NCBI GenBank assembly: GCA_944326615.1
Contig: CALVEO010000005.1
Span: 294 to 64,293, forward strand
From: Candidatus Gastranaerophilales bacterium
Lineage (GTDB): Bacteria > Cyanobacteriota > Vampirovibrionia > Gastranaerophilales > Gastranaerophilaceae
Direction: 5' to 3'
DNA: 64,000 nucleotides
The first letter of the stretch is position 1; each line of letters begins with the position of its first letter. Positions 3,768 through 50,037 of the stretch are shown here, one piece after another. Under the pieces are notes generated by a model. The model did no database searches and was not told the origin of the DNA. It saw only the letters and a list, made by a program, of their open reading frames with translations. A program made the translations under genes and the position numbers.

Positions 3768-3966
3768 TTTAGAAGATAGGAAGGTAGGTTATTTGGCAGA
3801 TGGAGGACCGGAGGTCAAACGGATTTAGAGGGTAGGAAGATAAGAAGGTAGGAGGGTAGGCTGTTTTATGGGCAAAAGCTTATCTTCCTATCCTCTTAAC
3901 CTCTTAGCTTCTGAATTGTACCCCACCCCTTCCCCTGCCTAATCAGGGAGGGGGAGCGTGCCGCTC
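3768..3966 (+). repeat. Composite intergenic repeat, copy R1 (purine-rich 8/9-mer hairpin + CCCxCCC palindrome + mini-hairpin)
   Basis: GAAGATAG/GAAGGTAG units followed by the complementary AGCTTATCTTCCTATCCTC...CTCTTAGCTTCT arm; similar to 8793-8910(-), 24485-24700 and 45503-45642(-). Confidence 0.85.
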
Positions 3967-3996
3967 CACCCTCCAAATGGGTTTTGGCTTAGAGCA

Positions 3997-6147
3997 TTAC
4001 TTGATTTTTGCTTCTAATTTGTCAAGACGGGATTTTAGTTCTTGATTTTCTTTTTCTAACGCGGTTACGCGGGAATCAAGTTCTTTTATTGCATTTATCA
4101 CTGCATAGAACATGTCTTCCATACGAATGGTCAAGAAGCCGTCGACCCCTTTTTTAACCGCATCTGGAAAAACTTTTTGCAAGTCCTGTGCAATTACGCC
4201 GACATGAGGGGTTTTCTTTTCGTCTTTTTTGAAGGTATAATTAAATACTTTCAACTGACGAATCTTATCTAAACCGGATGTGTTTGCTGTGCCTACATAT
4301 TTTAAGCGGCGATCGGAAAACACTGAATCACTATGTGAAAATTCCCCGTCAGAATTATAATAATTATACATTTCAGAACTTTTAGACAAATTAGCAACCT
4401 TCAAATTCCCGTTTTCATCTGTTGCAAATGCTGATATATCGTCATTATTACCGGCAAAATTCTTTCCTCCAGATCCGCCGGCATATGCCATTTTTGCAAC
4501 TATAATACCTTTTACAATTAAATTTCCATTGATTACAACTCCTGTATCAGTTACTCCGAGATGACTATCAACCTTTAACTGATTCATAGAGTTATGTACC
4601 TCTAATACTGCAGAACCAGCGTTAAAATTTGAACGACTGCCTATAAAAACGCGTTCGTCATTGTCACTTTCCGCATCAGAACCAAAATTTGGACCGGAAT
4701 TTGCACCGATACATATTTTATTACTGCCGGTCACACGGGAACAGGCAAGGGAACCAATGGCTGTGTTATTACTACCGGCTAACAAGGATTTCAAAGAGTT
4801 TGGTCCAAGTGCAACATTTGATGAACCATTATCTAAATTTGTTAATGAATAATAACCAATACCTATATTGGGTGTATCAACTGAAGTAGTATTTATTTTA
4901 TAAAGTGCACGGGTACCTATAGCTATTGATTCATTTGTCGCATCGGCAGTACCCATTGCTTCTGTACCTATAGCAATATTATTGCCTTTAGAAGACAGAT
5001 AACGGTGAGTAACAGATTTTGCTCCGTTACCGATTGCTATTCCGTTTAACCCTTTGGATTGAGCCTCTCTACCTATAGCTATACTATTCTCTCCATACGC
5101 TTTTGCTAAATAAGGGCCGATTGCAAGAGAATAATCGCCGTATGTCTCGGCCTCATCACCTATAGCTATAGAATATTGATTTGAAGAAATTGTTTCGGTG
5201 CCTATAGATATTGAATTTACCGCTTTCGCGTTTGAATCCCGACCTATTGCTATACTTTTACCGCCATTTGATATTGAACTTGTACCGATTGCTATGGAAT
5301 CGCCTATGGTACCACCACTGCCAGCATCATAACCGGATTGGGAAGCGCTGCCTATAGCTATTGAGCGTAAACCTACTGTATAAGCCCCACTAAGTGCTGC
5401 ACCGCCATCCTGCTCGTCTGTTGTCATTGAACTTCCAATAGCGATTGAACCGTTACCATAGGCCGTCGATTGATAACCGATGGCTATAGATTTCGCAAGA
5501 TTAGCTGGGAAACCTGAAACAACATTATTTGAATTTGTGCCGATCGCTATATTATCTGTTCCGGCTGTATTACCCTGCAAGGAATTTGCGCCAATTGCGA
5601 CATTACCGCTGCCGGTATTAGAGTTCAATGCATTGGAACCTATTGCGGTATTTAAGCTGCCATCGGTATTAGTAGCTATTGCATTATGACCGATAGCTAC
5701 ATTATCGTCACCTGCTGTATTCGCTGATAACGCATTAATGCCTACGGTTGTATTACGTTCACTGTTCTCGTTCGGACGGGTATTGCTTAAATATAAATTA
5801 TTTCTTTGGTCAAGACTTAAACGGCCCAAAATTGATGCACCCTGTTTAAATAAAATATGACTGAAAGTGCTGTTGTCTGCTACATTGATGAGTAACTTGG
5901 TATCGGCATCATCGCCGGTTGTGTCGTGCTGCCCGATTAATGCCACCTGCTGTTCGCCAGCGCCAAAATACGCATCTGACCCGTTCGTTGAATAGCGCCA
6001 GGGTGATGAATAATCTGATTTGTTACGCGTTGTCATTACAGGCGCCATGGCCGCCAAAATGATACTCATGATTAACATCACGACCATCATTTCCGCTAAA
6101 GTAAACGCCCCGTAACAGCTTTTTTGCTGCTTCCAAAATTTCCTCAT
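3997..6147 (-). CDS. Prepilin-type N-terminal methylation domain + YadA-like head repeats + Peptidase S74 intramolecular chaperone (adhesin)
   Basis: GA|FTLAEMMVVMLIMSIILAAMAP; many S(I/L)AIG and NxAIG repeats; C-terminal FSDRRLK...HVGVIAQDLQKVFPDAV plus a terminal coiled coil. Confidence 0.85.
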   Translation of the reverse strand: MRKFWKQQKSCYGAFTLAEMMVVMLIMSIILAAMAPVMTTRNKSDYSSPWRYSTNGSDAYFGAGEQQVALIGQHDTTGDDADTKLLINVADNSTFSHILFKQGASILGRLSLDQRNNLYLSNTRPNENSERNTTVGINALSANTAGDDNVAIGHNAIATNTDGSLNTAIGSNALNSNTGSGNVAIGANSLQGNTAGTDNIAIGTNSNNVVSGFPANLAKSIAIGYQSTAYGNGSIAIGSSMTTDEQDGGAALSGAYTVGLRSIAIGSASQSGYDAGSGGTIGDSIAIGTSSISNGGKSIAIGRDSNAKAVNSISIGTETISSNQYSIAIGDEAETYGDYSLAIGPYLAKAYGENSIAIGREAQSKGLNGIAIGNGAKSVTHRYLSSKGNNIAIGTEAMGTADATNESIAIGTRALYKINTTSVDTPNIGIGYYSLTNLDNGSSNVALGPNSLKSLLAGSNNTAIGSLACSRVTGSNKICIGANSGPNFGSDAESDNDERVFIGSRSNFNAGSAVLEVHNSMNQLKVDSHLGVTDTGVVINGNLIVKGIIVAKMAYAGGSGGKNFAGNNDDISAFATDENGNLKVANLSKSSEMYNYYNSDGEFSHSDSVFSDRRLKYVGTANTSGLDKIRQLKVFNYTFKKDEKKTPHVGVIAQDLQKVFPDAVKKGVDGFLTIRMEDMFYAVINAIKELDSRVTALEKENQELKSRLDKLEAKIK

Positions 6148-14871: not shown

Positions 14872-14948
14872 ACCCCTCACCCGAATTTCTAACTTTCGCC
14901 TCAGCTCAAGTTGAAATTCTGCCCTCTCACAGAGAGAGAGGGCGTGTT
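14872..14948 (+). repeat. Left inverted repeat of the DUF559 cassette (double-hairpin palindrome)
   Basis: CCCTCACCCGAATTTC-[23 nt]-GAAATTCTGCCCTCTCACAGAGAGAGAGGGC; inverted copy at 15327-15404. Confidence 0.9.
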
Positions 14949-15309
14949 ATTCAATATTGTTATATGTTTCAATTATTGAATTTAATACTTCTTCGATATT
15001 ATTAATAACATCATTATCAAAAAATCTAATAACTTTATAACCGTTTTGATTAAGAAATTCTGTTCTTGTTTTATCATATTCAACATATTTTTCATCAATA
15101 TGCTGTGAACCATCGAGTTCAATGACAAGTTTCTTACTTAAATTTAAGAAATCAACAATATATTTCCCTATTGGCACCTGGCGTCTGAATTTTATATTGT
15201 TTAATCTTTTTCCCCGCAAATACTGCCATAGAATATTCTCACAATCTGTTTGATTTATTCTAAGATCTTTTGCATAATTTAAAGATTTTTGGGTATAATG
15301 TCGTGTCAT
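14947..15309 (-). CDS. DUF559 / Vsr-like PD-(D/E)XK endonuclease
   Basis: AKDLRINQTDCENILWQYLR...KFRRQVPIGKYIVDF...LVIELDGSQH...GYKVIRF. Confidence 0.92.
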   Translation of the reverse strand: MTRHYTQKSLNYAKDLRINQTDCENILWQYLRGKRLNNIKFRRQVPIGKYIVDFLNLSKKLVIELDGSQHIDEKYVEYDKTRTEFLNQNGYKVIRFFDNDVINNIEEVLNSIIETYNNIE

Positions 15310-15326
15310 AATAATATAATATCACA

Positions 15327-15404
15327 AACATGCCCTCTCTCCCTGTGAGAGGGCAGAATTTCGCCTTTGTCTGAAGGAGAAAGGCTGAAATTCGGGTGAG
15401 GGTT
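15327..15404 (-). repeat. Right inverted repeat of the DUF559 cassette
   Basis: Reverse complement: CCCTCACCCGAATTTC-[24 nt]-GAAATTCTGCCCTCTCACAGGGAGAGAGGGC. It matches the left copy at 16/16 and 30/31 in the conserved blocks. Confidence 0.9.
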
Positions 15405-24036: not shown

Positions 24037-24345
24037 TTATACGCCTATGCAGCTGTTTAAATATTCTATTGTGCTTATTTTTTCATCGTACAAATACTTG
24101 ATAAAATTTAAATATGCCGCGTTATATGAAGTTATTACCAAATTTATTTCAAATCCGTCGGTGCAGAAAGGTTCGTAATCATAAACAACATAGCTGTTAT
24201 ATTTGCTTTTCCACTCCTTTCTTTCGATACGGCTGTTATTTTCTTCTATAATATCTTCAAGCCACCCGAGAATGTCTTTATTCACATTTTTCATTTCCAA
24301 GCGATTGTACTTACTGCAATCATGGCAATCATTTCCCATTAACAT
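24037..24345 (-). CDS. Hypothetical protein
   Basis: 102-aa ORF filling the space between the terminator and the repeat; start uncertain. Confidence 0.55.
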   Translation of the reverse strand: MLMGNDCHDCSKYNRLEMKNVNKDILGWLEDIIEENNSRIERKEWKSKYNSYVVYDYEPFCTDGFEINLVITSYNAAYLNFIKYLYDEKISTIEYLNSCIGV

Positions 24346-24484
24346 GTTAAATTACTCCACAAATATGTTATAGTAAAATTTTAAAGCTTTTTTCTTTTGA
24401 AATAATCCCCTTTAGGTATAAGTATCAAATAGTAAAATATGGTGATTTTATTATTTTTTTCCATCTCCTGGATGAGGGTTTGAT

Positions 24485-24698
24485 TGGAGGGCCGGAAGCC
24501 CGGAGGTCAGGATGGCAAGCTGATTTAGAAGGTAAGGAAGGTAGGAAGATAGGAAGGTAGGCTATTTACAGTAAAAAGCTTATCTTCATACCCTCCTACC
24601 CTCTTAGCTTCTGCTAACCCTCTCCACAGCCCTCCCCCTAGGGAGGGAGTATGTGATGGGTGCAGCGGCTACGCTGCCCCTAACCTCAAGGGAAGGGA
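24485..24698 (+). repeat. Composite intergenic repeat, copy R3
   Basis: GGAGGTCAGGATGGCAAGCTGATTTAGAAGG..., purine-rich arm, complementary arm, then ACCCTCTCCACAGCCCTCCCCCTAGGGAGGGAGTATGTG and GCAGCGGCTACGCTGC. Confidence 0.88.
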
Positions 24699-24765
24699 TA
24701 AAGAATAGAAGTTTATAATAATTTGGCTGGCATTTGATTAAGGTTCTGGATAAAAATAACAGAAA

Positions 24766-27586: not shown

Positions 27587-27660
27587 GGCTGGGTAGCTCA
27601 GTTGGTGAGAGCGTTCGGCTCATACCCGAAAGGTCGACAGTTCGAATCTGTCCCCAGCTA
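27587..27660 (+). tRNA. tRNA-Met (CAT), elongator type; CCA not encoded
   Basis: Cloverleaf: acceptor GGCTGGG/CCCAGCT, D arm GCTC/GAGC, anticodon stem TTCGG/CCGAA with loop CTCATAC, T arm GACAG-TTCGAAT-CTGTC. Confidence 0.93.
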
Positions 27661-27819: not shown

Positions 27820-27844
27820 GTAGGTTGGGGTTTCTACCCCAACA
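27820..27844 (+). repeat. Single GTAG-tagged REP-like palindrome
   Basis: GTAG + GTTGGGGT-TTCT-ACCCCAAC; only one copy noticed in the window. Confidence 0.55.
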
Positions 27845-40025: not shown

Positions 40026-40033
40026 AGTTTAAT

Positions 40034-40094
40034 ACCCTCTCCCCAGCCCTCCCCCAAGGTAGGGAGTATGTGGTGGCAGGAACGGCTACGTTCC
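40034..40094 (+). repeat. Partial repeat, copy R4 (CCCTCTCCC palindrome + mini-hairpin)
   Basis: ACCCTCTCCCCAGCCCTCCCCCAAGGTAGGGAGTATGTGGTGGCAGGAACGGCTACGTTCC aligns closely with 24617-24678. Confidence 0.88.
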
Positions 40095-44806: not shown

Positions 44807-45238
44807 ATGACAAAAGTTAACGGAAACGGCGGCAACAATCAGAATTTAGAAGCATTAAAAGCTTATTATGAAGCACTGCAAACAAGAAAAACAGGCAAAG
44901 AAGAAAAAACCGAAAATACTAAATCTGTTATTAGCTTTAAAGGAACCGAAAAAATTGAAGCAAGTGCTTTAGATGCTACGGCTGCTCAAATTTGGGGAGT
45001 ACAGTTATCTAAAGTAGATAAATCAGAAGCTGCGACACAAAGAAGAATTGAACAATATTTTAATACACCATTTATGGCATCACTAGATGAAATACAGGGA
45101 ATTGAACCTGATTTTGCTCAATATGCAATGTCAAATATTAAAGGGGTAGATCCGGACAAACTTGCAAAACATATGAATAAACCTTTAGGAGAAGAAACAG
45201 CCGCAGGCGTTACAGAATTTTTAGACGCATTAGTTTAA
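44807..45238 (+). CDS. Hypothetical protein
   Basis: 143 aa with an AAGGAG RBS; contains VISFKG. Confidence 0.7.
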   Translation: MTKVNGNGGNNQNLEALKAYYEALQTRKTGKEEKTENTKSVISFKGTEKIEASALDATAAQIWGVQLSKVDKSEAATQRRIEQYFNTPFMASLDEIQGIEPDFAQYAMSNIKGVDPDKLAKHMNKPLGEETAAGVTEFLDALV

Positions 45239-45272
45239 CTTATAAATATACAAATTTACTCACACGCATTTT

Positions 45273-45302
45273 AAAGACCGGTTTAAAAATCGGTCTTTTT
45301 TA
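45273..45302 (+). terminator. Intrinsic terminator
   Basis: AAAGACCGGTT-TAAA-AATCGGTCTTTTTT. Confidence 0.75.
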
Positions 45303-45502
45303 TGGAACGAAGCCGTTCCATCCATTACAGCTTACGACTATGCATAAGGCGCTTTAATGAATGTTCAAATATTGTAAATTTCTTTCGTAATATCGCTTTG
45401 TTCAGTCAACGCACTCGGGTATTCACGTAATTCGGGATAGATTTACTTAACTTCTTATCCCTCGCATCTGTTTTTCTTGAAATATTGACGTAATTGCCGA
45501 AG

Positions 45503-45642
45503 AAGCGTACCGCTCCCCCCATCCCTGATTAGGGAGGGCTGGGGAGAGGGTCATTAGAAGCTAAGAGGGTAGGAGGATAGGAAGATAAGCTTTTTTTTGT
45601 AAACAGCCTACCTTCTTAGCTTCCTATCTTCTTAACTTCTAA
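45503..45642 (-). repeat. Composite intergenic repeat, copy R5 (inverted)
   Basis: Reverse complement: TTTAGAAGTTAAGAAGATAGGAAGCTAAGAAGGTAGGCTGTTTAC...AAGCTTATCTTCCTATCCTCCTACCCTCTTAGCTTCT...ACCCTCTCCCCAGCCCTCCCTAATCAGGGA, shared with R1 and R3. Confidence 0.9.
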
Positions 45643-45645
45643 ATA

Positions 45646-45728
45646 AACCCTCACCCGCATCTCTAAAGACTCGCAAGCTCGTCTAGAGCTGCTCCCTCTC
45701 ACAAAGAGAGAGGGGGAGCGTGCCGCTC
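45646..45728 (+). repeat. Solo copy of the DUF559-flanking palindrome
   Basis: AACCCTCACCCG-[different hairpin]-CCCTCTCACAAAGAGAGAGGG followed by GAGCGTGCCGCTC. Confidence 0.85.
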
Positions 45729-45771
45729 AACTATAACTTATGGGAGCACATAAACCGATTTTTTATGATAG

Positions 45772-46248
45772 TTATTTTAAATTAAAATATAGATTTCCAA
45801 GACTCAAAAGAAAACAAAATGCTAAAAATAACATTATATTCCGGAAGGTTTTACCTGCTGACTTATCATAATACTCAAATTCATTTGTATCAGAATTCAC
45901 ATAACTGCTGAATTTTCTACCCATAGTTTTTGCATCATGCAATGTCGGAAAACTGAATTGTACAAATACATTATCATTATGTTGTTTGTCTAAATCAATC
46001 AGGTACATCATATCATCATTTCTAAATCTTGCATAATATGAAGAATACATAGGCTTAGATAAAGATGAAAGCTTTGCTGTTTTTATATAATTTTTGCCTG
46101 CAAAAGATACACGATTTAATGTACATAAATTTTGAAACTTGTTACAGTGAAAATATGCTTTATTTGGATAAAAAACAAGTATCAGAACAAACAAAACAAG
46201 TACCAGTATAATGTATAAATTATCGATAACAATTTTTTGTTTATACAT
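45772..46248 (-). CDS. Hypothetical membrane protein
   Basis: N- and C-terminal TM helices; 158 aa. Confidence 0.65.
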   Translation of the reverse strand: MYKQKIVIDNLYIILVLVLFVLILVFYPNKAYFHCNKFQNLCTLNRVSFAGKNYIKTAKLSSLSKPMYSSYYARFRNDDMMYLIDLDKQHNDNVFVQFSFPTLHDAKTMGRKFSSYVNSDTNEFEYYDKSAGKTFRNIMLFLAFCFLLSLGNLYFNLK

Positions 46249-47435: not shown

Positions 47436-49109
47436 TTATACATTCTCCGCAATTTTAGCAAGCCTGAACGTCAATTCAACACAGAAACCGCAATTTTCAT
47501 CGCTATGAAGTTTGATTTCGCCGTTCATTGCTTCCACAAGACCTTTTACAATAAATAAACCTAAGCCTGTACCTCGTGTTGTTCTTGTTGTGTTGTCGTC
47601 AAGCCGTATAAATTTTTCAAACAATTTATTTAATTTTTTAGATGGAATAATTTCACAGTCATTTTTTACAAAAATTTTAACAGTGTCATCAAAAATTGCA
47701 GTATCCACAACTATTTTCGAATCTTGCGATGCGTATTTTGCAGCGTTTTCAAGAAGGTTTACAAAAACCTGAAGAAGTCTGTCTTTGTCAGCTTGTATAA
47801 GCGGAAAATCTTCACCTATGTTAAAAACAATTTCTTTATTGTCTTTATTTTTTATCAGAATTCTTGATTCTTCGAGAATTTCAGGAATCCATACCTGTTC
47901 AGATTTTGTTCTCAAACGCATTCCCTCAATATCAGGGATAGTCAATAAATCTTCTATCAAACGTTTCAAACGTTCTGACTGCTCTTTTATTATTCTCAAA
48001 GATTTTTGTTTTGTTTCTTCATCAATTTTTATATCCTGCCGCATTAATCTTGTTGTGTAGCCTTGAATACTTGTTAAAGGTGTTCTAAGTTCATGGCTTA
48101 CTGTATCAATAAGGTTTGAGCGAAATTCATTCAATTGTTTGAGTTCAATATTATTTTTTTTCAACTGAATATAAGATTTATGAATTTCTGTTGCCATGCG
48201 GTTAAATTCAAAGGCAAGAAATATAATTTCATGCGGGGTGAACGCGGTTGTTAAAAGTCGTATCTGCCGTTCGTAATTACCTTTTGAAATTGCAATAATA
48301 CCTTTAAAAAGCTGTCTTATATTGATATAAAGGTAATAAGTATACAATCCTACAACAAAAATAATTGCAAATGTAGCAAATAAACAGGATAGAATAATTT
48401 TTAAACTGTTATTTGTAATGGCTTTTTTGGTAATTTTTTCTGTTGTATTTACAATAATCGTAATTTCAGGATCAACTTTTGAAACGTATACAAGAGGCTG
48501 ATTTTTTACATCACCGAAAATTACGGGTTTATCTTTTTTCAATTTGTCAGGAAGAAGCGAAATAGTTTTTTTATATGCATCTTCTGTATAATTGTGTTCT
48601 GCAATCAAATAGCCGTCTTTTGTAAGAACATAAATCTGTCTTTTCTCATCAGCAAGCGAGCGGAATAATTCATCTTTAACGGCATCGAGCTTATATGTTG
48701 CGACTAAATATTGATTATCAGATATTTTTAACGGAAAAGTCGCTTTTTTATTAAGTGTATTTTTTTTATCAATTTGCGCAAGCTGTTTTTCATCTGCCAA
48801 TTCCAGATCTTCACAGTCCGGCAGAGTTTTTGCTATAGAATCAAGATAAGCATTTTTAGCTTTTTTTGTTGGAAAATACTGTAGTGAAAATACAGCCTGT
48901 TCAAGATTGCTTGTTACAGTCTTATTAAAAAAGTCAATCTCATCAGATACCATATTTGCAATTAAAACAGCAGATTCTCTGAGCTGGTATCTCATAGACT
49001 GCTGGTTAATATTGTTTATAATAAAACCGCTTATCGTCATTGGAACAACAACCGCAAAAATGAATACAATTGCAATTTGTTCTACAATTTTCAGATGTTT
49101 TCCGAACAT
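47436..49109 (-). CDS. Membrane sensor histidine kinase (periplasmic Cache-like, HAMP, HisKA, HATPase)
   Basis: Two TM helices; VSHELRTPLT, VFVNLLENAAKY, GTGLGLFIV. Confidence 0.95.
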   Translation of the reverse strand: MFGKHLKIVEQIAIVFIFAVVVPMTISGFIINNINQQSMRYQLRESAVLIANMVSDEIDFFNKTVTSNLEQAVFSLQYFPTKKAKNAYLDSIAKTLPDCEDLELADEKQLAQIDKKNTLNKKATFPLKISDNQYLVATYKLDAVKDELFRSLADEKRQIYVLTKDGYLIAEHNYTEDAYKKTISLLPDKLKKDKPVIFGDVKNQPLVYVSKVDPEITIIVNTTEKITKKAITNNSLKIILSCLFATFAIIFVVGLYTYYLYINIRQLFKGIIAISKGNYERQIRLLTTAFTPHEIIFLAFEFNRMATEIHKSYIQLKKNNIELKQLNEFRSNLIDTVSHELRTPLTSIQGYTTRLMRQDIKIDEETKQKSLRIIKEQSERLKRLIEDLLTIPDIEGMRLRTKSEQVWIPEILEESRILIKNKDNKEIVFNIGEDFPLIQADKDRLLQVFVNLLENAAKYASQDSKIVVDTAIFDDTVKIFVKNDCEIIPSKKLNKLFEKFIRLDDNTTRTTRGTGLGLFIVKGLVEAMNGEIKLHSDENCGFCVELTFRLAKIAENV

Positions 49110-49114
49110 AAGAC

Positions 49115-49879
49115 TTAACCTTCACCAAACGGGGTTAATTTATACCCTACATTTGTAACTGTATGCAGATATTTCGGTTTTTTCGACCACTCTGACGAGC
49201 CTGTAGAAACTTTAGAATTATCTGTTGAGGTTCTTTTTGTATCAGGTTCGATTTTGTTGCGCAGACCGCCTACATGGACTCTTAGCATTCTCACATCTTC
49301 ATCACTGTCATAACCCCATACTTCATCAAGAAGTTTTGCAAGAGTAACCGCATTATTAAAATGCTGCATAAGACAGTATAAAATTTCAAATTCTGTTGGT
49401 GTGAGTTTAACTCGTTTATTTACAACAACAGCCTCAAGAGTTTCTGGGAAAATTTCTATATCACCTGCTTTTAAAACTTCATCAGAAAGAGCTGTTTTAT
49501 CTTCTACAATCTGGTTTCTTCTCAATAAAACTCTTATTCTTAACAGAACTTCCTGAATATCAAAAGGCTTTACTAAATAGTCATCTGCTCCGCAGTCAAA
49601 ACCTTCTGTCTTATCATCAATTGTTCCTTTAGCCGTAAGCATTAAAATAGGAATTGCAAGTTTGGCCTGACGAATATTTTTGCATACATCAAATCCGTTC
49701 ATTTTTGGCATCATAACGTCAAGCAAAATCAAATCATACGTATTATTCAATGCTTTGTTAAGTCCTTCCATACCGTCTTTGGCCGTATCTACAAAATATC
49801 CGCTTGCACTTACGTCAAACTCCAGAAGTTCTCTGATTTCATCATCATCATCAACAATTAAAATACGTTTTTCATTCAT
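49115..49879 (-). CDS. OmpR-family response regulator (RpaA-like) with an 18-aa insertion in the wHTH domain
   Basis: ILIVDDD, LLDVMMP, MLTAK, ADDYLVKPF, LTPTEFEIL, EVWGYD, RVHV...KIEPD. Start taken at MNEKR. Confidence 0.92.
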   Translation of the reverse strand: MNEKRILIVDDDDEIRELLEFDVSASGYFVDTAKDGMEGLNKALNNTYDLILLDVMMPKMNGFDVCKNIRQAKLAIPILMLTAKGTIDDKTEGFDCGADDYLVKPFDIQEVLLRIRVLLRRNQIVEDKTALSDEVLKAGDIEIFPETLEAVVVNKRVKLTPTEFEILYCLMQHFNNAVTLAKLLDEVWGYDSDEDVRMLRVHVGGLRNKIEPDTKRTSTDNSKVSTGSSEWSKKPKYLHTVTNVGYKLTPFGEG

Positions 49880-50037
49880 GTAAGAATCCTTTTTTAATGC
49901 CAAGACCCTTTTTAATAATTCAATAAAAATTCTTTTTTTTCAATTAATTATAAAGAAATAAAAACTATAAAATTTTTAAGATATCTATACTGCCATAGTA
50001 TCATTAAACCAGCTTTTTCAACAGACAAATATAAATT

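Follow-up and report, generated by a model that had tools for sequence, protein, structure and literature searches.

The DNA analyzed here, a window of 64,000 nt, corresponds to positions 294–64293 of contig C5 of a 1.96-Mb, 78-contig Gastranaerophilales metagenome-assembled genome (MAG) with 34.6% GC (G000); the nearest LepA relatives of the window come from gut Gastranaerophilales/Melainabacteria MAGs. The element in question is a long repeat unit on the + strand at 45646–45714, located in the 533-nt spacer between the convergent open reading frames (ORFs) 44807–45238 (+) and 45772–46248 (−). It is composed of a C-rich tag, AACCCTCACCC(G), at 45646–45657; a 36-nt internal stem-loop at 45657–45692, followed by a spacer T; and a terminal hairpin, CCCTCTC-ACAAAGA-GAGAGGG, at 45694–45714. 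The unit scored 63.6 bits (E 5.6e-15) with R1, a covariance model built from long copies only, and belongs to the major long subtype of that family. The tag AACCCTCACCCG is exact at 45646–45657 and 15393–15404 (−) and has one mismatch at 14872; with up to two mismatches, six matches were found in the window versus 1.0 expected, and none of 100 shuffles reached six. CCCTCTC-N-GAGAGGG occurs in the window only at 14922, 15333, and 45694 (three versus zero expected). In the fold of the + strand the tag stays unpaired, the internal stem-loop and the terminal hairpin both form, as does another small GC hairpin, and the internal stem GCA.CTCTA..GAC/GTC.TAGAG.TGC is part of the minimum free-energy fold (z = −2.9).

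The unit sits in a mosaic island that spans 45304–45731. On its right lies a short GC hairpin module, GGAGCGTGCCGCTC, at 45715–45728 (+), which has 20 exact copies in the genome and trails the long unit in most of its copies. On its left is a purine/pyrimidine 8-mer hairpin module (45555–45641, ~90 copies); either this module or a related CT-rich replacement module always lies 5′ of the major-subtype long units. Beyond it is a short unit of BoxC/PIT type at 45515–45552 (−; 13.7 bits), a tag plus a CCCTCCC hairpin, the tag of which faces the purine hairpin as a mirror of the long unit opposite; 45504–45728 folds as one long inverted repeat. The island begins with a 196-nt repeat module (45304–45500) that is tandemly duplicated in some conspecific strains. 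An Rfam scan of the window at the gathering threshold reported only a tRNA and no match to the repeat units; within 45250–45780 the purine hairpin gave sub-threshold hits to generic miRNA models for long hairpins, and there were no others.

The combination of tag and hairpin is the published BoxC/PIT/TM_ECO triplex motif, and the 45646 copy is such a unit with an inserted stem-loop. TM_ECO has been described as CCCTCNCCC-N3-6-GGGNGAGGG-N3-GGGNGAGGG (Holder et al. 2015, PMC4666352), and its reverse complement reads as tag, N3, hairpin (CCCTCNCCC, N3, CCCTCNCCC, N3-6, GGGNGAGGG). The genome contains 13 strict matches, 48 relaxed short matches, and at least 19 matches of the long form. The short unit at 24618–24647 fits the relaxed pattern; the 45646 unit fits only as a variant, in which the 36-nt stem-loop replaces the N3 loop, so that its minus strand is the TM_ECO pattern with a stem-loop inserted in loop 2. 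Among 61 units the tag consensus is (A)ACCCTC(A/T)CCC(G), the variable base being A in 32 and T in 29, without a single G or C, as purine-motif triplets allow, and with C or T in at least 95% of units at the remaining positions, as the predicted triplex requires. In many single-sequence folds the tag and the 5′ arm of the hairpin compete for the G arm. More than half of the canonical G-quadruplex motifs of this AT-rich genome (58/108) fall in tag-plus-hairpin units, and the G-rich strand of the short unit reads GGG-A-GGG-CT-GGGG-AGA-GGG. A G-quadruplex was set aside as a general reading, since long units contain only three G-tracts.

Compensatory change was assessed in an anchored, N-padded alignment that took in seven species and 54 distinct units; in a plain MAFFT alignment the subtypes were one base out of register and RNAalifold gave no structure. 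Eight of the nine internal stem pairs had changed on both sides (65 cells), with a covariation score of 0.213 compared with 0.083 in shuffles (0/500 reached the observed value) and at most 0.082 for slid partners, although the anchor was chosen to maximize pairing and these pair counts therefore favor structure. The tag and terminal hairpin were invariant in the same alignment, and the loop core TCGC..GCTC was retained in 57–58 of 61 units. The structure of the internal stem is under selection. When closed, the stem is predicted to keep the tag and hairpin adjacent.

Three long copies in the window scored 64–66 bits with R1, and three short copies scored 13.7–16.4 bits (E 0.013–0.063); no other window sequence exceeded 11.5 bits. 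The two long copies elsewhere in the window, of the minor subtype, flank a nuclease gene at 14872–14942 (+; 65.9 bits) and 15333–15404 (−, inverted; 64.1 bits). The remaining short units are at 24616–24647 (+; BoxC/PIT type, 16.4 bits, in a mosaic island at 24456–24681) and 40033–40064 (+; with a GC hairpin, 14.8 bits), and a degenerate short unit with a GC hairpin at 3920–3969 (+) was identified by eye and by BLAST and missed by the covariance model. Genome-wide, R1 produced 51 matches, there are at least 26 complete long units plus three cut by contig ends, and strict matching returned 69–95 tag-plus-hairpin units, with tag-to-hairpin distances grouped at 12 nt in 25 units, at 14 nt in 20, and at 46 nt in 16. 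The major subtype has at least 22 copies that are 87–100% identical within the genome, the DUF559-flanking minor subtype has three to four, and other species carry their own subtypes at 75–83% identity. The near-identity of these copies points to a recent expansion of the R1 family in this genome. In a self-BLAST of the genome, mosaic islands numbered 390 and covered 86 kb; they contained 48 of the 156 contig ends. The major subtype has a fixed array order of pyrimidine/purine module, long unit, and GC hairpin.

An earlier note on this DNA, written from the letters of the window, had proposed that the copies form a single family, marked by a CCCTC(A/T)CCC tag and a terminal hairpin and sometimes carrying a variable stem, and R1 and the structural alignment bear this out. 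The 45646 copy does keep both conserved ends, with an exact tag, the CCCTCTC/GAGAGGG hairpin, and the internal stem as the minimum free-energy fold; the shorter versions listed at 24617, 40034, and 45512–45550 (−) were recovered by R1, and the model separated the members in the window from its other GC-rich hairpins. The anticipated further copies exist (51 in this genome and 7–113 in 23 of 41 congeners), as do the compensatory changes in the internal stem. Other statements needed revision. The degenerate copy at 3921 can be seen by eye but is not found by R1 (E > 10). The 45646 copy is solo within the window, whereas genome-wide it is one of at least 26 long copies and of the major subtype. 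Its internal stem is not unrelated to the others: the architecture and the TCGC..GCTC core are kept, and the arms that flank DUF559 in the congener G014 share the ACTCGCAAGCTCGT core with it. The note was also incomplete in that the tag and hairpin were not recognized as the BoxC/PIT/TM_ECO motif.

The gene between the two inverted terminal-hairpin copies of the minor subtype (14947–15309, −) encodes a 120-aa DUF559 protein, a Vsr-like PD-(D/E)XK nuclease (PF04480, E 8e-39). Among solved structures the closest are 3HRL (E 1e-23) and 3R3P (E 1.7e-3), the latter being the catalytic domain of the homing endonuclease I-Bth0305I. In 32 homologs the motif DF...E.DG..H...D..R is at least 90% conserved and there are no internal stops, suggesting that the nuclease is under constraint. 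The cassette lies between hom and thrC and is absent from the congeners G001, G011, and G015, in which hom and thrC are 3–20 nt apart. A closer comparison was provided by the conspecific assembly L243, set against nine other strains and the window: its flanks are 99.6–99.9% identical, and the DUF559 ORF is missing from between hom and thrC. The empty allele reads tag-stemL-CCCTCTCACAGAGAGAGAGGG-stemR′-tag′, a 134-nt palindrome with a single shared hairpin that corresponds to the complete element without its ORF; relative to it, the filled allele additionally has the ORF and a second, inverted hairpin copy after GAGAGGGC. Strains of one species therefore differ by the presence of the ORF exactly at the hairpin. 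Judged from the two alleles, the ORF may have entered the hairpin by homing-type insertion, or it may have been lost by deletion between 8-nt direct repeats.

Across 41 congeneric species the distribution of R1 was all-or-none, with 7–113 matches in 23 genomes and none in 18. Strong DUF559 matches were found in 21 of the 23 R1-positive genomes and in none of the 18 R1-negative genomes (Fisher p = 9e-10). On a tree of hom and thrC, the positives fell in no fewer than four distinct places, of which three had support values of 84–100: G014 (113 copies) is sister to two R1-negatives (support 100), G003 is sister to an R1-negative genome (support 84), and G004, G006, and G009 form an R1-positive clade (support 100). 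G000 itself was placed among R1-negatives. The co-occurrence thus spans at least three to four independent transitions on this two-gene tree. Both DUF559 genes of this genome are bracketed by inverted tag-plus-hairpin units, as are at least 22 of 30 DUF559 loci sampled across Cyanobacteriota, photosynthetic lineages included. A functional tie between the repeats and DUF559, as read from genome comparison, appears well supported by distribution and by nesting. The LepA relative L009 (92% LepA identity) has different GC-rich repeats (..GCCCTCGCCCCTTTGGGGAGAGGGTG..GGGAGAGGGGC..) downstream of the same gene at 5770–5960, and related species therefore hold distinct repertoires.

Units of the family also occur inside genes. 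In cca, a 72-nt unit forms an in-frame insertion of 24–25 aa that is absent from 11 congeners; the gene with its insert encodes 413 aa in four conspecific strains. In priA, the in-frame insert is a DUF559 cassette whose arms are of the strict TM type; it sits immediately before the P-loop and is absent in 10 congeners. Gene and cassette form one open frame of 881–898 aa, in which the linkers are 12 aa long and a Hint domain is absent, and the priA-DUF559 frame is common to G003 and G006 and probably to further genera. Neither insert varied in length among conspecific assemblies, PriA being 881 aa in all. In the PriA of this genome (C9:4826–7471), the BoxC-type arms are translated as linkers, LNPSPHPSPAGGEG.. 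and ..HPLPLRERDGVRGE, just ahead of the Walker A motif; in five conspecific assemblies the public annotation has PriA as a single 881-aa protein, and open frames of 889–914 aa that hold DUF559 occur in other genera of the family. At the cassette position the priA genes of G012, G002, and G014 (L124, L125, and L134) carry inserts of the purine-rich 8-mer module, GCAAGAGGACAGGAAGG..., and since these cassette-free congeners have other inserts at the same position, the linker seems to be a hot spot for several repeat modules. The cca gene (C14:2962–4230; orthologs L130–L132) has at least two, possibly three, positions with species-specific, repeat-derived in-frame inserts, and one insert peptide, ..CHSEALAEESH..ILRSAQDD.., comes from a different repeat family.

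At the 45646 locus, the number of modules differs between strains. The spacer measures 533 nt in five assemblies and the window, and 729, 796, or 1026 nt in others, the added DNA being a duplicated 196-nt module and/or a ~263-nt unit with a second long repeat; the long copy nearest the right flank is kept in all strains. The relatives' lepA loci offered no orthologous spacer, because synteny stops after a 143-aa ORF. The upstream gene has its own terminator-like hairpin with a T-run at 45275–45303, which is conserved in G012 without the island, so the island is not needed as a terminator. Among flanked intergenic units, convergent gaps are over-represented (17 of 52, versus 17% of all gaps) and divergent gaps under-represented (eight of 52, versus 25% of all gaps), and the orientation of units relative to the upstream gene is unbiased (32 versus 29).

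We put the odds at roughly even (about 0.5) that the 45646 unit is a non-coding arm of a selfish system composed of a DUF559 nuclease and its hairpins. The complete element would be a palindrome of tag, stem, hairpin, stem′, and tag′, and the nuclease ORF would be lodged in the hairpin tip, hence the two inverted hairpin copies that surround it. The C-rich tag would act as a third strand, its sequence being repeated by the 5′ arm of the hairpin, and a unit that became single stranded or negatively supercoiled could form a hairpin, cruciform, or triplex. DUF559 might then cut or nick the folded unit, and repair of the break from another copy would spread the ORF into empty palindromes in a homing-like manner. 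By switching templates at the C-rich tags and hairpins that copies have in common, repair could also copy, shuffle, and tandemly amplify arms and neighboring modules, and this repair-driven copying would give rise both to mosaic arrays such as that around 45646 and to in-frame insertions of 69–72 nt in genes. Cleavage of folded structures by DUF559, and spread by repair rather than by transposition, are the parts of the scheme that we infer from its products. We regard as less likely than not the more general proposal that stand-alone small DUF559 proteins are the missing partner enzyme of BoxC/PIT/TM repeats, recognizing folded DNA instead of a sequence and spreading themselves, gene-less arms, and modules by break-induced copying.

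The most serious competing explanation is that the repeats are host or neutral structural DNA, made up of BoxC/PIT-type elements prone to triplexes or G-quadruplexes and of leader modules of pilin-like genes, and spread without a dedicated enzyme by gene-family duplication, slippage, and homologous recombination. DUF559 would then be a separate selfish homing-type gene that uses hairpins as a safe landing site and is confined to genomes with the repeats. We regard this as possible, if rather unlikely, and the observations that weigh against a nuclease-driven system are largely its support. About a third of the tag-plus-hairpin units (34/95) lie within 600 nt upstream of pilin-like genes, of which there are ~109, and 26 of these 34 are short, nearly all co-oriented with the gene; because these units belong to the leaders of pilin-like genes, part of the copy number reflects expansion of a gene family. 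The strain differences at 45239–45771 are tandem gains of modules, attainable by ordinary recombination, and the major-subtype copies are never found alone, always within mosaic arrays. Spacer length, the only property compared, was constant at 40033 (72–73 nt, 10 conspecific strains), and the 420-nt spacer at 24616 was likewise constant in length across eight. A strict search for empty palindromes gave no exact match in 41 genomes, and a looser search found empty double units only at L243 and at one near-match site in G021; the L243 allele would be explained equally well if the ORF had been deleted between the 8-nt direct repeats GAGAGGGC. No DUF559 gene in this genome is flanked by the major (45646) subtype. 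Two R1-positive genomes, G009 (86% complete) and G055, lack a strong DUF559 match, no DUF559-positive genome lacks repeats, and the co-occurrence fits equally a nuclease that merely parasitizes pre-existing repeats. The choice of alignment anchor described above counts on the same side, as do the location of islands at synteny breaks and the share of the genome's G-quadruplex motifs that falls in these units, and Holder et al. (2015) tied such motifs to rearrangement with no enzyme invoked. What neutral spread does not readily account for is the all-or-none pattern in sister species (113 copies in G014 and none in its two sisters) together with near-identical copies, which argues for invasion and burst over a conserved role in the host or gradual duplication. 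The in-frame cca and priA units are far from pilin genes and need an insertion process, and the random orientation relative to the upstream gene argues against a cis role at the RNA level.

A miniature inverted-repeat transposable element (MITE), that is, a deletion derivative of a transposase-encoding insertion sequence moved in trans by cut and paste, was among the comparisons drawn in the earlier note and is very unlikely. In its favor are the small size, structure, and multiple copies of the elements, the folding of the island at 45504–45728 as one long inverted repeat, and the empty sites in relatives. Against this, no target-site duplication could be defined at cca, hom-thrC, or priA, where the flanks differ between species; the two ends of a unit, tag and hairpin, are unlike and are not mutual inverted repeats; and DUF559, the only gene to turn up between inverted units, does not have a known transposase fold. 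No insertion sequence with these ends was seen, in a genome that was not exhaustively screened for transposases. The expected MITE signature of transposase-type terminal inverted repeats plus a target-site duplication was not found, and independently dispersed units do not describe copies that lie in fixed-order mosaic arrays and differ between strains by tandem gain or loss of modules rather than by simple presence/absence. The relation of a transposase to its MITEs likewise seems a poor description of DUF559, which looks more like a gene lodged in the hairpin tip of a palindrome, and mobility alone does not explain the dispersal, given the units in leaders of the expanded pilin-like family. 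Two other predictions of that note fared better: a link to the candidate enzyme was borne out by co-occurrence with DUF559 (21/23 versus 0/18), and insertion polymorphism by the sites for hom-thrC, cca, and priA that are empty in most congeners, the L243 allele without the ORF, and the varying number of modules. Its statement that all copies are intergenic is correct for the window and not for the genome, where the cca unit and the priA cassette are in frame.

Mobilization as repetitive extragenic palindromes (REPs or REPINs) by the genome's own RAYT gene (C19:131–660) is less probable still. The RAYT is genuine (NF047646, 132 bits versus a cut-off of 80), the layout of tag and hairpin resembles that of tagged REPs, and a weak association with Y1_Tnp exists (10 of 23 repeat-positive versus two of 18 repeat-negative genomes, p = 0.04). 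However, the RAYT is flanked by its own GTAG-GTTGGGGTTTCTACCCCAAC REP, which has only four copies in the genome; Y1_Tnp is missing from the richest genomes, G014 (113 copies), G003 (89), G044 (62), and G004 (49), and from 13 of 23 repeat-positive genomes overall, and it is present in two repeat-free ones. Both the distribution and the separate four-copy REP contradict RAYT as the mobilizer. Copies of the GTAG-REP include window ~27820–27843 (C5:28117), ~165 nt past the tRNA at 27587–27660, as well as C19:80–103 and C19:388–410; one copy lies upstream of the RAYT gene and one is in frame inside it.

Chance GC-rich hairpins or ordinary intrinsic terminators, suggested by the GC-rich intergenic hairpins and their excess between convergent genes, are refuted as a sufficient explanation by motif counts far above shuffles, the separation of members from all other window sequence by R1, the absence of a U-tract after the hairpins (with 0 terminator-like sites in 45150–45850), the upstream gene's retention of its own terminator-like hairpin, and the random orientation.

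BoxC/PIT/TM repeats have a literature that goes back to the 1990s (Bergler 1992 and Bachellier 1999, cited in PMC4666352; Hoyne et al. 2000; Holder et al. 2015). In vitro they fold into triplexes, and in genomes they are markers of instability; neither a function nor an origin nor a means of spread has been attributed to them (PMC4666352). The word endonuclease does not occur in Holder et al. 2015 (0 occurrences, PMC4666352). The present family shares with them the three-block pattern (CCCTCNCCC, short loop, CCCTCNCCC, loop, GGGNGAGGG), a patchy distribution among close relatives, abundance in Cyanobacteria, and a tie to rearranged loci, and E. coli K-12 ycjD, a DUF559 gene, has such a motif ~165–210 nt from its 3′ end. 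The 45646 unit differs in that a covarying stem-loop of 36 nt replaces the 3-nt second loop, the stems are 7 nt long, and the unit lies in mosaic arrays with other modules; its family is tied to a DUF559 gene, and its triplex is predicted from sequence.

The resemblance to REP/REPIN-RAYT systems (PMC3116915; PMC3733652; PMC3479197) lies in the tagged hairpin, the small nuclease-type gene that stands alone between two inverted units, the many gene-less copies, the inverted doublets, and the lineage-specific repertoire. The enzyme here, however, is a Vsr-like PD-(D/E)XK protein and not an HUH Y1 transposase, the tag is CCCTCNCCC and not GTAG or CGTC, DUF559 varies in presence between strains and reaches seven copies per genome, and the real RAYT of this genome has a different REP. 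Vsr-like/EDxHD homing endonucleases (I-Bth0305I, PDB: 3R3P; cited in PMC9403480) have a related nuclease domain and show comparable behavior, with a precise presence/absence allele pair in one species and a priA site before the P-loop that is patchily occupied across species and genera. Unlike them, the DUF559 ORF resides in no intron or intein and is flanked by 35–72-nt hairpin repeats, is apparently read through as a linker-flanked domain when inside genes, and consists of a ~110-aa catalytic domain only, with no separate DNA-binding domain. A DUF559/EDxHD gene has been mentioned among inteins (PMC9403480), and DUF559 is enriched among predicted "programmed inversion" targets at inverted repeats (PMC9881135). 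We found no published account of DUF559 with inverted repeats or mobility, or of such repeats in Melainabacteria.

Two further groups of palindromic repeats offer parallels. Rickettsia palindromic elements (RPEs) are palindromic units found in frame in protein-coding genes, and bacterial interspersed mosaic elements (BIMEs) are mosaic or tandem combinations of palindromic units. With RPEs the family shares, as a functional analogy only, palindromic units of 69 or 72 nt, a multiple of three, in frame in the housekeeping gene cca; with the BIMEs of E. coli it shares the way in which a palindromic unit is combined, in mosaic and in tandem, with further short motifs. The family is unrelated in sequence to either group, and no nuclease gene is known to be nested in RPEs or BIMEs. 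Both groups have been reviewed (PMC2229807, PMC10969869).

The genus amounts to a natural experiment, in that sister species have either no copies or up to 113, in step with one small nuclease gene. Since the filled and empty cassette alleles both occur within a single species, the origin and movement of the repeats are testable with a 120-aa protein and a 134-nt substrate. If the proposed system exists, the inserts in permissive loops of the essential genes priA and cca, translated with flanking linkers, would represent homing with neither intron nor intein. The repeats also explain the poor assembly of such MAGs (48/156 contig ends in repeats), the spurious long ORFs and odd "PSP..GEG" peptides produced by gene callers, and the in-frame inserts gained by housekeeping proteins.

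Some observations concern the surroundings of the repeats. The ~109 type IV pilin-like genes share a near-identical N terminus, AFTLAEVLITLGIIGVVAAMTMP; one member lies in the window at 3997–6147 (−) and another just before it (C5:25). Around 60 are preceded by conserved stop-free leaders that read ..HVVHFDDIRRA-, ..HLFSYSPCKRC-, or ..FTLHTSLKKQV- and have no nearby in-frame ATG, and gene callers may fuse leader and gene. Crude ORF calling placed 38 of the 95 tag-plus-hairpin units inside ORFs, and these were mostly artifacts of the stop-free, GC-rich pilin leaders. The repeat islands at 45304–45731 and 24346–24765 coincide with synteny breaks, and in G012 the genes that flank the 45.3–45.7 kb island lie 120 kb apart. 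In L280 (89% identical), the gene equivalent to 24037–24345 lies next to the response-regulator/kinase pair found at 47436–49903 in the window, with a purine-hairpin module between them, and the response regulator (window 49184–49237 region) has an ortholog of 254 aa in L280 versus 262 aa here.

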